From positions 70,329-134,328 of the forward strand of contig CAMTVD010000004.1 in assembly GCA_947085095.1 (NCBI GenBank): DNA of 64,000 nucleotides, in the 5' to 3' direction. The position numbers and the translations under genes are program-made. Below are positions 16,375 to 34,652 of this stretch, in pieces. Origin of the DNA: an uncultured Thermus sp. (GTDB taxonomy: Bacteria > Deinococcota > Deinococci > Deinococcales > Thermaceae). The notes under the pieces were generated by a model. It was not told where the DNA came from. It did not search any database and worked only from the letters and a program-made list of their open reading frames with translations. Each line of letters starts with the position of its first letter. Position 1 is the first letter of the stretch.

Positions 16375-17058
16375 CTAGGCCCGGGCCCAGGGCACGTACA
16401 GGAGGGGGAGGTGGCTTACGAAAGGTTCTGCGTAGTCCACCCCCAGGTAGTTCCCCCAGTAGCGCCGCATGGCCTTGCGGGCCTCCACCCCTTTAGGCCC
16501 CACGGTCTCGCTCACGGCCTCCCCGGAAAACTGGCTCCTGTAGGCCAGAACCGCCTGCTCCCACTGGTCTATGAAGGCGGAGATCTTCACCAGGAAGCTG
16601 GGGGTGAAGGGGTGGTTGCCGGGGTAGAAGAAAAGCCTTTCCACCCGGTGGGGCCTCCCCTCCAGGGGGGCCTTGGCAAGGGCCGCTAGGTGCACCGCGG
16701 CCACGGCGAGGCGGCCTGCGGCGGTGTGGTCGGGGTGGCGGTCGGCCTCGAGGGGAGCCAGGAGAATCCTGGGCCTAAGCCGGCGCAGGGCCTCGGCCAC
16801 CTTCAGGCGCTGCTCGGCCACGTCGGCCAAGCCCCCATCGGGAAGGTTCAGGTTGCCCCGGAAGTCCAGGCCCAGGATGCGGCTCGCCGCCTCCACCTCC
16901 TTAGCCCTCTCCTCCGGAGTGCCCTTGGAGCCCATCTCCCCCCGGGTGAGGTCCAGAATCCCCGTGGAAAGCCCCTCCGCCTTGGCCCGGGCCAGCGTCC
17001 CCCCGCACCCCAGCTCCCCGTCGTCGGGGTGGGGGGCCATCACCAAGAGATCAAGCAT
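16375..17058 (-). CDS. bshB1: PIG-L family deacetylase, BshB1-like (bacillithiol biosynthesis)
   Basis: APHPDDGELGCGG, TRGEMG and DRHPDH. Confidence 0.85.
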   Translation of the reverse strand: MLDLLVMAPHPDDGELGCGGTLARAKAEGLSTGILDLTRGEMGSKGTPEERAKEVEAASRILGLDFRGNLNLPDGGLADVAEQRLKVAEALRRLRPRILLAPLEADRHPDHTAAGRLAVAAVHLAALAKAPLEGRPHRVERLFFYPGNHPFTPSFLVKISAFIDQWEQAVLAYRSQFSGEAVSETVGPKGVEARKAMRRYWGNYLGVDYAEPFVSHLPLLYVPWARA

Positions 17059-17656
17059 CCTTCACCTCCACCCGCTCCCCAAGCCGCCTCTCGGTGCCCT
17101 CCCAAAGCCGCTTCAGATTCTCCCGGTGGGTCCAGAAGATGAGGGCCGCCATGAGGAAGACCGTGGCCACCTCCCAAGGGGGCCGCCCCAGGGCCAGGGC
17201 CAAGACCGTGGCCGCCACGCTCCCAGCCATGCTCCCCGCGGACACGTAGCGGGTGATGAGCATCACGCTGACCCCTACGGGTAAGGTCCATAAGGACAGG
17301 ACCGGGTCCAGGAAGAGGAGGGTGCCGAAGCTGGTGGCTACCCCCTTCCCCCCTTTAAAGCCCAGGAAGAGCGAGTAGTTGTGGCCCAGGATCGCCGCCA
17401 GGGCCACGCCCCCCAAAAGCCAGTCCTCGAGGCCCGACGCCCGGGCGATGAGGACGGCGATACCCCCCTTGAACACGTCAAAGAAGGCCACCACCAAGGC
17501 CGGCCCCACTCCCAGGGCCCGGAGGACATTGGTGGCCCCGATGTTGCCGGAGCCCACCTTGCGGATGTCCACACCGTAGGTCCTGGCCACCAAGACCCCG
17601 GCGGGGACGGAGCCGAAGAGGTAGGCGAGGAGGAGAACAAGGAGCACCTCGGTCAT
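17051..17656 (-). CDS. plsY: Glycerol-3-phosphate acyltransferase PlsY (canonical)
   Basis: All three motifs intact: GSGNIGATN, FKGGKGVAT and HRENLKRL. Confidence 0.95.
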   Translation of the reverse strand: MTEVLLVLLLAYLFGSVPAGVLVARTYGVDIRKVGSGNIGATNVLRALGVGPALVVAFFDVFKGGIAVLIARASGLEDWLLGGVALAAILGHNYSLFLGFKGGKGVATSFGTLLFLDPVLSLWTLPVGVSVMLITRYVSAGSMAGSVAATVLALALGRPPWEVATVFLMAALIFWTHRENLKRLWEGTERRLGERVEVKDA

Positions 17657-31259: not shown

Positions 31260-31874
31260 ATGCCGTACCCGTTCAAGCTACCCGAGCTAGGCTACCCCTA
31301 CGAGGCCCTCGAGCCCCACATTGACGCCAGGACCATGGAGATCCACCACCAGAAGCACCACGGGGCCTACGTCACCAACCTGAACGCCGCCCTGGAGAAA
31401 CACCCCTACCTGCAGGGGGTGGAGGTGGAAACCCTCCTCCGGCACCTCGCCGCCCTCCCCGCCGACATCCAGACCGCCGTGCGCAACAACGGGGGCGGGC
31501 ACCTGAACCACAGCCTCTTCTGGAAGCTCCTCACCCCCGGTGGGGCCCAGGAGCCCGTGGGGGAGCTGAAGAAGGCCATTGACGAGCAGTTTGGCGGCTT
31601 CGCCGCCCTCAAGGAGAAGCTCACCCAGGCGGCCATGGGCCGCTTCGGCTCCGGCTGGGCCTGGCTGGTCAAGGACCCCTTCGGCAAGCTCCACGTGCTC
31701 TCCACCGCCAACCAGGACAACCCGGTGATGGAGGGCTTCGCCCCCATCGTGGGCATTGACGTCTGGGAGCACGCCTACTACCTCAAGTACCAGAACCGCC
31801 GGGCGGACTACCTGCAGGCCATCTGGAACGTCCTCAACTGGGACGTGGCCGAGGAGATCTACAAGGGCGCCTGA
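31260..31874 (+). CDS. sodA: Mn superoxide dismutase
   Basis: [18 protein letters not shown] and DVWEHAYY. Start at ATG 31260 with a GGAGGT SD. Confidence 0.96.
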
Positions 31875-32524
31875 AGGTTGAGAACGCGGCTGACGGCCCC
31901 TTCCAGGGCCGTCAGCGCTTCTTTTACCCGCCAGGCTCCCCTGTCCCGCACCCCGGCGGGGTTGGAGACGGCCCTGAGCTCCGCCCCCCTTAGCCCCAAG
32001 GCCAGGCAGGCCCGGGCGAAGGCCGCCCCCTCCATGCTCTCCACCTGGGCCCCCCATCTCTGGGCCAGGGCCCATGCCTCCTCGGGGCTTTCCGAGACCA
32101 GGTCCTGGGTGAGGCCGGTGACCACTCTAAGGCCCAAGGCCTCGGCCAAGGAAGCGGTGAGGCCAGGGTCCAGGGGAAAGCGGTTGTAGTAGCGCTTCTC
32201 CCCCTTCCGGAGGGCGGGAAAGCCCAGGGCCTCCAGGCCTTCCCTAAGGCCCAGGTCCGCCTCCACCTCCTCCCCGATGAGGACCGCCTGGCCCAAGGCG
32301 AGCCCCGAGCCCGGGTAGGCCCCGGCGATGCCGAAGAGGAGGGCCCTCTCCACCGGGTGCCCCAGGGCGTAGGCGGTGAGGGCCATGGCGGCGTTCACTT
32401 TGCCCACCCCCGTTTCCAGGTAGACGAAGTCCTCACCCTTAAGCCCTTTCCAGACGAGAAAGGTGAAGGGATCCCCCCGGAGGAAGGGGGCCTCGAGGCG
32501 GGTGGGGGAAAGGAGGAGCCACAC
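31859..32524 (-). CDS. mqnB: Futalosine hydrolase (PNP/MTAN family)
   Basis: [29 protein letters not shown] and RDRGAW. Confidence 0.85.
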
Positions 32525-34185
32525 TACTCCACCACCCTGAAGCCCAAAGCCTCGGCCCGCTCCACGAAGAACTGGATGTTCTCCGACTTCACCTCGCCCC
32601 CCAGGCTCTTCCGCTCAAAGGCCCCTTCCGCCGCCAGGATCATGGTCTCCGCCAGGCAGGCGGGCACCTGGTCCGGGGCCCCGAAGTGCAGGTCCAAGGT
32701 GGCCCGGGCCTGCCCGGGGAGGCGCACCACCCCGCCGGGGATCACCCGCACCCCCGGTACCTCCCGCACGCTCTCGTGCACGTCCGGGGGGACGCCCTCG
32801 TCGTAGATCCAGGCCCCGGGCTTCACGTGCTCCGGGTAGATGACGGGGTTGGGATCGCTGGTGGCGGTGAAGACCAGGTCCGCCTCCTTGATGGCGGCCA
32901 CCTCCGTGGTCACCACCATCTCCGGGGCTTCCCCCTTTTTCTCCAGGTTCCTCCTCAAGGTCTCCGCCGCCCGGCGAAGCCTTTCCAGGTCCCGGCCCAC
33001 CAGGATGAGCTTTCCCACGTAAGGGGCGATCTGCCGGGCGATGCCGAAGGCCACCACCCCGTTCGCCCCCACCACGGCGGCGGTGGTCTCCTTGAGGCTC
33101 CTAGAGCTTTGGGCGAAGTGGGCGAGGATATTGGGAATGGCCGCCCTCACCGTGCCCGCGGTGTAGGCCCCCCCGTTGGTCACCTCAATCCCCGGCACGG
33201 TCTCCTGGACCTTGAGGCCCTTCTCCCCCACCACGCTCCAGAAGGCCCCCAGGCCCACCACCGTGGCCCCGAGCTCCTTGGCGAGCCTCGCCCCCTGGAT
33301 GGCCCGCCTCACCGCCAGGTCGGGCTTCCCCTTGATCTGGTGGGGCAGGAGGGGGGCGGAGATGAGGTGGCAGCGGATCTCCCGCCCGTCCGCGGTCCTC
33401 ACCCCCCGCACCTCCCCCACCTTCATGGGGCGGAAAAGCTCCGCCAGGCGCTCTATCCAGGCCTGCCTGAGAAGGCCGAGGCGGACGAAGGGCCTGAGCC
33501 AGCGGAAGCGGGGGCTCTGCCAAAAGTCCTCCACGGTGAGGGGGTGGATGAGGAAGGCGCAGACCACCTGGTTTTCCGAGGGCAGGGGCAGGGGCTCGCC
33601 CAGCTTGGGCTCGGTGCCCTCGAGGATCCGCCCCAGGTTCTCCTTGTAGCGCCAAAGGGCAAGGAGGAAGAGCAAGAGGCCAAGAAGCTTCGCGCCCAGG
33701 GAAAAACCCCCAAAGAGGAGAACCGAAAGAAGCCCCAGGGGCAGGGCCAAGGAGGCCAAGGAGGCGTAGCCGGTGAGGGCGTAGAGGGTAAGGGCCAGGG
33801 CCACGGGTGCCATCCCTAGGGCCGGGGAGAGAGGGAGACCCGCCAAAACCCCAAGGAGCACCCCCGCCCCCTTGGCCCTAAGGGGCCAGGGGTCCCGGAA
33901 GAAGAGGGGGTAAAGGTGGCCCAGGTAAGCGGCCACCCCCAAGGCCAGAAGTTCCTCTAGGCCCAGGCCCAAGGCCCGCCCCAAGAGGAGGGGCAGGTAG
34001 CCCTTGAGGAAGTCCAGGAGGAAGGAAAGGAGGAGCATCCCCAGGCCCAGGCGCCTCAGGGCGCTCTCCAGGCCCAGGGTGTAGGGGCTTGCTGTACGCG
34101 GGTCCACCCCGCGCCTTTGGGTCAGCCAGTACCCCAGGGGCAGGGCCCCCATTAGGTAGGCCAGGGGAAGGAGAAGCACGGTCAT
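32524..34185 (-). CDS. Fusion protein: PlsY-like membrane domain plus acyl-ACP-reductase-like NAD(P) domain
   Basis: First ~195 aa resemble PlsY (AYLMGALPLG, LDFLKG, LGHLYP, ENLGRILEGTEPK). C-terminal part has AFLIHP, GLGAFWSVV, VVGANG and PACLAETMIL. Confidence 0.8.
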   Translation of the reverse strand: MTVLLLPLAYLMGALPLGYWLTQRRGVDPRTASPYTLGLESALRRLGLGMLLLSFLLDFLKGYLPLLLGRALGLGLEELLALGVAAYLGHLYPLFFRDPWPLRAKGAGVLLGVLAGLPLSPALGMAPVALALTLYALTGYASLASLALPLGLLSVLLFGGFSLGAKLLGLLLFLLALWRYKENLGRILEGTEPKLGEPLPLPSENQVVCAFLIHPLTVEDFWQSPRFRWLRPFVRLGLLRQAWIERLAELFRPMKVGEVRGVRTADGREIRCHLISAPLLPHQIKGKPDLAVRRAIQGARLAKELGATVVGLGAFWSVVGEKGLKVQETVPGIEVTNGGAYTAGTVRAAIPNILAHFAQSSRSLKETTAAVVGANGVVAFGIARQIAPYVGKLILVGRDLERLRRAAETLRRNLEKKGEAPEMVVTTEVAAIKEADLVFTATSDPNPVIYPEHVKPGAWIYDEGVPPDVHESVREVPGVRVIPGGVVRLPGQARATLDLHFGAPDQVPACLAETMILAAEGAFERKSLGGEVKSENIQFFVERAEALGFRVVE

Positions 34186-34652
34186 CGCAGGTAGTTTAGC
34201 CCCACCACCACCCCGCCGGTGAGGAAAAGGGTGAGGAAGCCGGCGGCCACCACCCCGAAGGAGATGGCCAGAAGGGCGTAGCGCCGCCTGAGGCCCAGGA
34301 CCACCGCCAGCACGCTCCCGCTCCAGGCCCCGGTGCCGGGAAGGGGCACGGCCACGAAGAGGAAGAGGCCCAAAGCCCCCAGGCGCTGGACCTGTTCCTC
34401 TCCCTTGAGGCGGACCCGGGCCTCGAGGGCCTCCCAGGCCCTGAGGAGGAGGGGTAGCCGGGTGGCGAGGGCGATAACCCAGGGGAGGAGGACCAGGGCC
34501 ACCGGGGCCACCAGGAGGTTGCCCAAGAGGGCCAGGAGGAAGGCTTCCCAGGGGGAAAGGCCTAGGGCCACCCCCAAGGGGATGGCCCCCCTGAGCTCCA
34601 CCACGGGCAGGGCGGCCACCAGAAGGACGTAGAACTCGGGCGTCATCTTCAT
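34182..34652 (-). CDS. Small multi-drug export-like membrane protein (COG2426-like)
   Basis: LPVVELRGAIP and FVAVPLPGTGAWSG. Confidence 0.85.
   Translation of the reverse strand: MKMTPEFYVLLVAALPVVELRGAIPLGVALGLSPWEAFLLALLGNLLVAPVALVLLPWVIALATRLPLLLRAWEALEARVRLKGEEQVQRLGALGLFLFVAVPLPGTGAWSGSVLAVVLGLRRRYALLAISFGVVAAGFLTLFLTGGVVVGLNYLR

Follow-up and report, generated by a model that had tools for sequence, protein, structure and literature searches.

Two kinds of described enzyme come closest to the protein reported here: AAR, the reductase of acyl-acyl carrier protein (acyl-ACP), and the membrane acyltransferase PlsY. In AAR, and by the authors' inference in PigE, the acyl chain is moved to a cysteine (Cys294 and Cys296, respectively) and the thioester is then reduced by NADPH to an aldehyde, as described in PMC8341465; the preprint on the carmabin TAD, a putative terminal amidation domain, gives the same scheme for AAR-type reductases. 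PigE joins its AAR-like domain to a class-III transaminase that converts the aldehyde into an amine (PMC8341465), and KecF and PP_2782 are also fusions of an AAR-like reductase and a class-III transaminase that make amines. For PlsY, the account in PMC5700162 assigns the clamp on the phosphate of glycerol 3-phosphate (G3P) to Ser35, Arg45, Lys104 and Asn180 and the binding of its 2-hydroxyl to Ser142 and His177; the acyl-phosphate is held by the side chain of His92, which binds its phosphate, by the backbone of Loop3 (K104-A107) and by Thr41, which is hydrogen-bonded to the acyl carbonyl. The S35A and H177A mutants retain 4.76 and 6.5% of the activity, and T41A is given there a 'severe consequence'. 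The gene analysed in this study joins a domain of each kind. It lies in a 64,000-nucleotide stretch of DNA from an uncultured Thermus sp. (contig CAMTVD010000004.1, positions 70,329 to 134,328; the whole stretch is hereafter called the window) and encodes, from an ATG start codon given in a program-made list of open reading frames (ORFs), a 553-aa protein (32524..34185, minus strand) in which a seven-transmembrane (7-TM) PlsY-like domain is followed by a complete AAR-like reductase domain. We regard this fusion as a candidate enzyme for the alkylamine lipid of the Deinococcota.

The reductase fold was recognized over the whole C-terminal domain by sequence and by structure. A phmmer search of the PDB retrieved PigE (4ppm, E 7e-14) and AAR (6jzu, E 1.5e-11, residues 255-541), and an AlphaFold2 model of the fusion built from a 54-sequence alignment (pLDDT 93.7, pTM 0.90) was matched by Foldseek to AAR structures with TMt 0.76-0.79 and E 4e-18 (for 6jzz, TMt 0.79 over 359 columns and a 341-residue chain, E 4.7e-18). 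The best family match was the PigE-type profile NF053554 of NCBIfam (residues 258-550 on positions 49-334 of 837, E 2e-32, 112 bits vs 850), and the AAR equivalog TIGR04058 gave 52.6 bits against its cut-off of 449.7 (E 4e-14; 54.2 bits in the genome search). The whole fold corresponds to that of AAR (6JZU/6JZQ; TIGR04058), and the alignment brings together the catalytic Cys, the GxxGxxG motif and the Arg that follows strand 2 in the two proteins. Unlike AAR, which is soluble, the fusion is joined to a 7-TM domain, is only 22-24% identical to it, and comes from a genome without the ADO partner: ADO (PF11266) was not found in this genome (G000, 93% complete) or in the Thermus thermophilus and Deinococcus radiodurans controls. 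The aldehyde product would thus not be destined for alkanes.

The catalytic residues are also conserved. Cys510, the GAxGxxxxG motif, H214 and D462 are invariant in all 54 aligned relatives, a set that takes in fusions from other phyla as well as stand-alone proteins, and the Rossmann motif (with G373, A374, G376 and G381 invariant) and R398 are unchanged in 21 of 21 Deinococcota sequences. By analogy with AAR, an acyl-Cys thioester would be expected to be reduced by NADPH to an aldehyde. From the alignment, NADPH seems the likelier cofactor because R398 matches the Arg of AAR, while the carmabin TAD, which is NAD-specific, has an Asp at the adenosine site (TAD preprint). The TAD structures (9E4S-9E56) share with the fusion the AAR-like two-lobed fold and an invariant Cys that lies next to the nicotinamide (Foldseek E 4e-15), but the TAD is 17-19% identical and is part of non-ribosomal peptide synthetase/polyketide synthase modules.

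The same domain could be taken for a dehydrogenase of the shikimate, amino-acid or glutamyl-tRNA type acting outside lipid metabolism, since Pfam sees a Shikimate_DH NAD-binding domain in it (PF01488, residues 361-482, 37 bits), with OCD_Mu_crystall below the cut-off, and JGI labels it a 'predicted amino acid dehydrogenase'. We consider this extremely improbable: the dehydrogenase matches are limited to the Rossmann part, whereas the full-length matches are PigE's N-terminal domain, AAR and the TAD. The match to glutamyl-tRNA reductase is partial and weak (residues 346-482, 37 bits vs 429; 3oj0, E 3e-4, NAD domain only), shikimate dehydrogenase was absent among the Foldseek matches listed, Pfam gave no match to the substrate-binding N-terminal domain of that enzyme, and the fusion partner is a membrane-bound enzyme of lipid metabolism. 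Both the sequence and the predicted fold support placing it with AAR and the PigE N-terminal domain, and we regard it as rather likely that the fusion is an aldehyde-forming acyl reductase.

An earlier note, made from the letters of the window alone, had described the ORF as a degenerate PlsY fused to an AAR-like domain. The two-domain layout holds, with Pfam and PDB matches well beyond chance, and every string quoted from it (SPYTLGLES, RAKG, YKEN, AFLIH, GLGAFWSVV, TNGGAYTA, AVVGANG and PACLAETMIL) is present in the translation. Of the five AAR motifs cited there, four are seen in the PDB alignment: ALGGFTSII, TTGNTHTA, AVVGATG and FACFAEAMLL are aligned with the fusion, including the Cys, while FGLIGH lies outside the alignment and is represented by its counterpart, the invariant H214. 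The differences from the canonical plsY at three catalytic motifs were borne out by the BLASTP alignment. The overlap of stop and start codons with both neighbouring genes (ATGA upstream and 1 nt at mqnB) was likewise confirmed. The grouping with dehydrogenases that would have spoken against the note's assignment was not observed, the C-terminal domain falling with AAR, PigE and the TAD by sequence and by fold.

The N-terminal domain matches PF02660 from residue 8 to 187 over the full profile (1-164 of 164; 102.2 bits against a gathering threshold of 24.1, E 4e-29). Its sequence retrieved the PDB entry 5xj5 of PlsY (phmmer, E 5e-22), and its predicted structure shares the 7-TM fold of the Aquifex aeolicus enzyme (5XJ5-5XJ9, TMt 0.81-0.83; for 5xj6, TMt 0.83 and root mean square deviation 2.7 over 199 columns). 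BLASTP aligned it with the canonical PlsY of the same genome at 33% identity (E 3e-20), with the contrasts GSGNIGATN/SPYTLGLES, GGKG/RAKG and HREN/YKEN; GGKG retains its K and HREN its E-N. The canonical gene is on the minus strand, and 17051-17656 read on the plus strand has two stops in translation.

Residue roles given in PMC5700162 were mapped through the PDB alignment and an alignment of the window protein, 20 orthologs and nine other fusions, the orthologs being chosen for spread over five families from the 200 genomes with a match. The G3P phosphate clamp is incomplete: Ser35 is replaced by P34 (Ala in most of the phylum), whereas the counterparts of the other three residues, R44, K105 and N183, are present in the window protein, and the R45, K104 (as K or R) and N180 positions are mostly retained across the aligned orthologs. 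Both 2-hydroxyl binders are affected, His177 being Y180 here (Y, F or H in the phylum) and the Ser142 position being S145 here and S, A or T across the 21 sequences. In the acyl-phosphate site, H90 and G106 do not vary and position 105 stays K or R, but Thr41 has become an invariant Glu (G38 and E40 are the same in 21 of 21 Deinococcota sequences), and an invariant Arg replaces the Gly-Gly before the loop, where the fusion also has an insert of about five residues. Compared with Aquifex PlsY, then, the counterparts of His92, the K/R-G loop, R45, N180, R183 and E189 are retained, whereas S35>P/A, T41>E, G102-G103>x-R, H177>Y/F/H and a variable Ser142 position set the fusion apart.

These substitutions bear on the possibility that the protein is simply a second PlsY, a true G3P acyltransferase with an accessory dehydrogenase domain, as is suggested by the full-length PF02660 match and by NCBI and UniRef, where the orthologs from Thermus and Meiothermus are entered as 'glycerol-3-phosphate acyltransferase'. 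This is very improbable. The fusion scores 78.4 bits on the PlsY equivalog TIGR00023, below the cut-off of 137.2, three positions where mutation removes most of the activity according to PMC5700162 are changed (S35>P, T41>E and H177>Y), and a canonical PlsY is encoded in the same genome. PlsX is encoded there as well, and Thermus and Deinococcus have both. Because the G3P-positioning residues have been lost, the fusion would no longer make lysophosphatidic acid, a job done by the canonical PlsY.

The N-terminal domain is nevertheless not in random decay. Between the same pairs of genomes, it does diverge faster than the canonical PlsY (51/54/48/38/39% vs 71/70/54/50/49% identity), and its mean pairwise identity is 46%, against 64% for the C-terminal domain. 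However, all of its 17 invariant residues (G13, P16, G18, G38, E40, G47, D58, K61, G89, H90, P93, R103, G106, G112, R179, R186 and E192) fall in or beside the PlsY motifs. The earlier view of a degenerate PlsY serving as a mere tether is therefore too weak, as these residues sit on the active-site motifs and include the acyl-phosphate His. Because the pocket is conserved, the domain is probably more than an anchor; judging from its residues, it may still bind a phosphorylated lipid or ligand, with an acceptor that would no longer be G3P.

Four PF02660 matches were found in the genome. Beyond the canonical PlsY and the fusion, these are two divergent paralogs (124.6 and 60.9 bits), one of which has GSGNPGALN but lacks motif 3, the other lacking motif 1. 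A Deinococcus genome (G042) has three PF02660 matches. In addition, the PlsY genes of Fibrobacter and relatives (L023-L039, L043) show KGKDFDI and EG.FSGGK, the insert features seen in the fusion-type PlsY domain; in a search with a four-sequence alignment they match residues 10-200 only and represent unfused relatives of this PlsY subfamily.

The fusion is nearly universal in Deinococcota. Among 201 sampled genomes, 200 were matched by the full-length query, nearly all over residues 1-553, and the C-domain query identified an ortholog at E 1e-85 or better in 196, to which G076, with an ortholog in pieces, can be added (197 in total). With this query, no match was obtained in G142 and G189, and G168 and G183 gave distant paralogs alone. 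The AAR model also matches the T. thermophilus and D. radiodurans controls, two species in which the alkylamine lipid has been solved. In G168 and G183, ORFs of 1472 aa (G168:C2:851258-853831) and 942 aa (G183:C17:2920-5643) contain both a class-III transaminase and an AAR-like domain, an arrangement also seen in KecF and PigE. The idea that such ORFs have displaced the fusion was dropped because about 27 genomes have both the fusion and a second AAR-like match.

An exhaustive C-domain search of 1.84 billion representatives yielded 2284 matches, 150 of which were listed. Among the matches listed, twelve are full-length relatives of 551-600 aa with 45-62% identity, and past that group the full-length E-value falls from 8e-85 to 8e-45. 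Pfam was run on 65 of the 150, namely all those of at least 481 aa except P0266, and the fusion partners found were PlsY in 19, a PlsC-type acyltransferase in five (P0166, P0185, P0209, P0257 and P0270), START in eight (three with PilZ) and class-III aminotransferase (Aminotran_3) in four. Fusions to START/Polyketide_cyc, with or without PilZ, include P0155-P0158, P0168, P0175 and P0183. P0143 and about ten others, of approximately 700 aa, have an N-terminal region of about 300 aa with no family assigned before the AAR-like domain, one of them being labelled 'serine carboxypeptidase' in a metagenome-assembled genome (MAG) of Chloroflexota. None of the fusions to PlsC-type, START or ~300-aa regions seems to have been characterised.

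A quick maximum-likelihood tree of 77 C-domains (66 of the 150 listed matches and 11 from Deinococcota; the rows were chosen and none was dropped afterwards) separated all of the PlsY fusions, P0248 excepted, from the transaminase fusions by a branch with an SH-aLRT value of 100. The group with the PlsY fusions divides further into a clade of eight with canonical PlsY motifs and one of 21 with altered motifs (SH-aLRT 98). The former include two from Candidatus Berkelbacteria (L021 and L022) and one from a Patescibacteria MAG; in this clade, GSGNIGxTN, SGGK and HxxN are preserved in the PlsY part, for which the scores are 118-154 bits. The latter comprise the Deinococcota proteins, including that of Truepera radiovictrix, metagenomic proteins and one from a MAG labelled Bacillota. 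Among the ten closest representatives from outside the phylum sample, one (P0126) retains a motif 1 that is nearly canonical. Given the canonical sister clade and such intermediate relatives, the PlsY-AAR architecture, as far as the sequences tell, is older than the Deinococcota, and the G3P site was lost gradually. The canonical-motif fusions (L021, L022, P0184, P0211 and others) share the architecture and the loop insert with the window protein but are only about 30% identical to it in the C-domain, and their PlsY part, judged by its motifs, is probably a working G3P acyltransferase.

This sister clade suggests a different division of labour, in which the AAR-like domain would supply acyl-phosphate from Cys510, in a GAPDH-like manner, to a PlsY-type transferase with a changed acceptor. 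The acyl group would reach Cys510 from acyl-ACP or acyl-CoA or by aldehyde oxidation, and the Deinococcota domain would acylate an acceptor other than G3P. Such a scheme suits the Berkelbacteria fusions, which keep all canonical motifs, and no PlsX (PF02504) match was obtained, beside two PF02660 matches, in the 0.93-Mb Berkelbacteria genome with L021. The PlsC-type fusions in 5 of 65 relatives and the conserved polar pocket of the Deinococcota domain are also in its favour. We nevertheless consider this scheme, the leading alternative, rather unlikely: we know of no AAR-family member that makes acyl-phosphate, and the literature consulted on the family holds none; the conserved NADPH motif would be needless for a plain transacylase; and no result points to another acceptor. 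An extra supplier is also not needed in Thermus and Deinococcus because they have PlsX and the canonical PlsY. A parallel that favours the scheme is the PlsY-DegV/FakB-like fusion of thermophilic Anaerolineae, whose C-terminal part is read as an acyl-phosphate supplier in PMC5700162. It resembles our protein in having a soluble lipid-handling partner at the cytoplasmic C-terminus, but this partner is a fatty-acid-binding protein rather than a reductase (compared by its description in PMC5700162 only). The Berkelbacteria genome itself raises the question of the acyl-phosphate source of its PlsY, perhaps the fused domain.

What the aldehyde might be used for is suggested by the lipids of the phylum. 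The papers describing the Meiothermus ruber and Oceanithermus profundus genomes give 2'-O-(diacylglycerophospho)-3'-O-(N-acetylglucosaminyl)-N-glyceroyl alkylamine as the major phospholipid in Thermus and Meiothermus and relate it to the phosphoglycolipid of Deinococcus, and PMC3035268 describes the alkylamine phosphoglycolipid as an unambiguous chemical marker of the lineage. For T. thermophilus HB8, PMC9636437 stated in 2022 that the enzymes for the third hydrophobic chain were 'not identified', and we found no later assignment of them in the literature. The required chemistry, from activated acyl to aldehyde to amine, is by analogy a good fit to the logic of the AAR-transaminase fusions. 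PigE, TamH, KecF and PP_2782 have the same reductase type, which feeds aldehydes into amine synthesis; unlike the fusion, in which Pfam found no class-III aminotransferase (PF00202), they carry a transaminase domain, and they are secondary-metabolite enzymes working on carrier-bound polyketide or fatty intermediates.

We therefore put forward, as a serious although tentative possibility, that the fusion is a membrane-bound NADPH reductase making the fatty aldehyde for the alkylamine lipid of the phylum. It would be a two-domain inner-membrane enzyme, conserved across Deinococcota, whose reductase domain would be cytoplasmic and directly follow PlsY motif 3. A long-chain acyl group would be loaded on Cys510 as a thioester and then reduced to the fatty aldehyde, presumably by NADPH, while the PlsY-like domain would hold the lipid at the membrane and either pass heat-labile acyl-phosphate made by PlsX to the reductase or take up the aldehyde. 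The acyl donor may be acyl-ACP, or acyl-phosphate bound in the PlsY-like pocket and passed to Cys510; the latter is favoured because acyl-phosphate decomposes above 60 C and because the FakB-like PlsY fusion of thermophiles is read as channelling (PMC5700162). A separate enzyme would then transaminate the aldehyde to the alkylamine, which would be amide-linked to glycerate in the signature phosphoglycolipid.

A further elaboration, which we find highly doubtful, is that the protein is bifunctional and that, after transamination, its PlsY-like domain forms the amide of the signature lipid. The pattern of residues would allow this reading because His92, the K/R-G loop, R45 and N180 are kept while S35, T41, S142 and H177 are changed. 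The donor would be 1,3-bisphosphoglycerate, which has both a phosphate-hole and a phosphate-clamp ligand, the acceptor a membrane-held alkylamine, with Glu40 near the acyl carbonyl as the base for its ammonium group, and the product N-(3-phosphoglyceroyl)alkylamine. The absence of Glu40 from six of the ten nearest outside relatives weighs on it.

The aldehyde, or an alcohol derived from it, might also serve another lipid, such as 1,2-diols, ether-type lipids, fatty alcohols or waxes. The evidence for a reductase is the same in that case, and the fusion of the reductase to two unrelated G3P acyltransferase families, PlsY and PlsC, suggests a link to the glycerol backbone; however, the G3P-binding residues are the very ones lost. 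To our knowledge, ether lipids have not been reported as a general trait of the phylum. Diols are reported in the group, where long-chain 1,2-diols replace 1-acylglycerol in some Thermus and Meiothermus glycolipids, and our literature search found no paper on the enzymes of their biosynthesis; they occur, however, 'in small amounts' and in some strains (PMC3035268), as opposed to a gene in 197 of 201 genomes. We thus regard another lipid as an unlikely destination. The earlier note had proposed a role in both alkylamine and diol lipids. The phylogenetic profile agrees with it in that nearly every sampled genome of the phylum marked chemically by the alkylamine lipid has the gene; nothing specific ties the protein to either lipid, and the link to diols is the weaker of the two.

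Several points weigh against the alkylamine proposal. The link between the fusion and this lipid is circumstantial, we infer which substrate is used, in which direction the reaction runs, that a transaminase cooperates and which lipid results, and we found no paper on this PlsY-AAR fusion in the literature. The fusion is not restricted to Deinococcota, the relatives with 45-62% C-domain identity including the Bacillota-labelled MAG, and Glu40 is replaced in the six outside relatives mentioned above. The canonical sister clade is present in Berkelbacteria and Patescibacteria, in which we know of no alkylamine lipid. In addition, no clear transaminase partner was found across the phylum. The closest relative in this genome of the AAR-fused transaminase domains (37-54% identity) is a gene on contig C31 that scores 458 bits as a putrescine aminotransferase and 429 bits on the transaminase part of PigE, both below the cut-off. 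Clear orthologs of it (71-94% identity) are present in all 29 sampled genomes of the Thermaceae-like families f1 and f3, but Deinococcus and family f4 gave matches of 43-47% only. The profile of C31-like transaminases in the four fusion-negative genomes was uninformative because positives and negatives give the same 39-46% paralog matches. Elsewhere in the genome, a 12-kb stretch (G000:C13:25162-37589) contains four class-III aminotransferase genes interspersed with an apparent aldehyde dehydrogenase and a four-gene ABC transporter; from the ORF order alone, this looks like a cluster for amine catabolism.

The gene neighbourhood likewise fails to supply a partner. When the ORFs of 21 loci were clustered (shadow ORFs overlapping the fusion aside), no neighbour family was common to the whole phylum; mqnB was present in 7 loci, RsmE in 6, PF06695 in 5 and a PLD-like gene in 4, and the adjacency of mqnB and PF06695 is limited to Thermaceae-like loci. 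In the window, the TAG stop of the fusion gives its G to the GTG start of mqnB, the product of which scores 188 bits on TIGR03664 (NCBIfam). In Deinococcus, 22 of 30 sampled genomes have a ClsB-like gene of the PLD superfamily no more than 2 kb from the fusion, and in 18 of these 22 it is on the same strand within 500 bp (hand counts). As a member of the phosphatidyl-transferase superfamily, its product is compatible with the phosphatidyl-transfer step of the alkylamine lipid. It was rejected as a phylum-wide partner, the association being strong only in the genus Deinococcus and the Thermus matches being weak, with one HKD region. The positions of the features discussed are listed in Table 1.

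Table 1. Location of the fusion gene, its domains and motifs, and related genes (window coordinates, or genome, contig or locus coordinates where a handle precedes them)
Feature	Position	Strand	Basis or remark
Whole fusion ORF, PlsY-like domain and AAR-like reductase, 553 aa	32524..34185 (including stop codon)	(-)	ORF list, profile and PDB matches
PlsY-family 7-TM domain, residues 1-198	33592..34185	(-)	PF02660, 102 bits; Foldseek 5xj6, TMt 0.83, E 4e-10
Residues 33-44, SPYTLGLESALR, in place of PlsY motif 1 (GSGNxGATNxxR)	34054..34089	(-)	S35>P, T41>E40
His90, counterpart of PlsY His92	33916..33918	(-)	Invariant; alignments
R103-A-K105-G106, in place of the GGKG loop (phosphate hole, Lys104)	33868..33879	(-)	R103 and G106 invariant; 105 is K/R
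R179-Y-K-E-N183, in place of motif 3	33637..33651	(-)	H177>Y/F/H; N180 counterpart retained in all but family f4
Complete AAR-family (COG5322) reductase fold, residues 206-553	32527..33570	(-)	phmmer and Foldseek matches to AAR and PigE
Rossmann dinucleotide motif G373-A-N-G-V-V-A-F-G381	33043..33069	(-)	Aligned with AAR GATGDIGS
R398	32992-32994	(-)	Aligned with the AAR Arg after strand 2
Cys510, counterpart of AAR Cys294 and PigE Cys296	32656..32658	(-)	PDB alignment; invariant in 54/54
Upstream 156-aa membrane protein, PF06695 (Sm_multidrug_ex)	34182..34652	(-)	Overlaps the fusion by ATGA; adjoins it in 5/21 loci
Downstream futalosine hydrolase MqnB	31859..32524	(-)	1-nt overlap; adjoins the fusion in 7/21 loci, Thermaceae-like only
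Canonical PlsY, comparison copy of the same genome	17051..17656	(-)	TIGR00023, 185.1 bits vs cut-off 137.2
Further divergent PlsY paralogs, outside the window	G000:C39:6467-7276 and G000:C24:7165-7794	(-) and (+)	PF02660
Candidate class-III transaminase, 414 aa	L044:4240-5484 = G000 C31:4240-5484	(-)	Between RNase R and GlmM
PLD/ClsB-like gene, directly 3' of a Deinococcus fusion gene	L008:4359-6098	(-)	PLD superfamily, several paralogs per genome
Berkelbacteria PlsY-AAR-like fusions	L021:4001-5716; L022:4001-5668		Canonical PlsY motifs

Both domains of the fusion belong to known families and have already been named by automatic annotation. In databases, the orthologs appear as 'glycerol-3-phosphate acyltransferase', 'predicted amino acid dehydrogenase' or, for one truncated Meiothermus entry, 'long-chain acyl-ACP reductase', and the first of these names is probably wrong for several hundred of them. 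What appears to be new is that the two are combined in a membrane enzyme, that the PlsY pocket has been remodelled and that the protein is proposed to start alkylamine synthesis. The fusion provides a concrete and near-universal candidate for the first committed step of this pathway in a phylum of which two members, T. thermophilus and D. radiodurans, are genetically tractable. If it is true that the fusion reduces acyl-phosphate directly, this would be a new enzyme activity, and a thermostable aldehyde-forming reductase would be of interest for the production of fatty amines and alcohols. Irrespective of the end-product, it would be the first AAR-family enzyme integrated into the membrane, and its PlsY-family domain would be the first in which the substrate pocket is changed.

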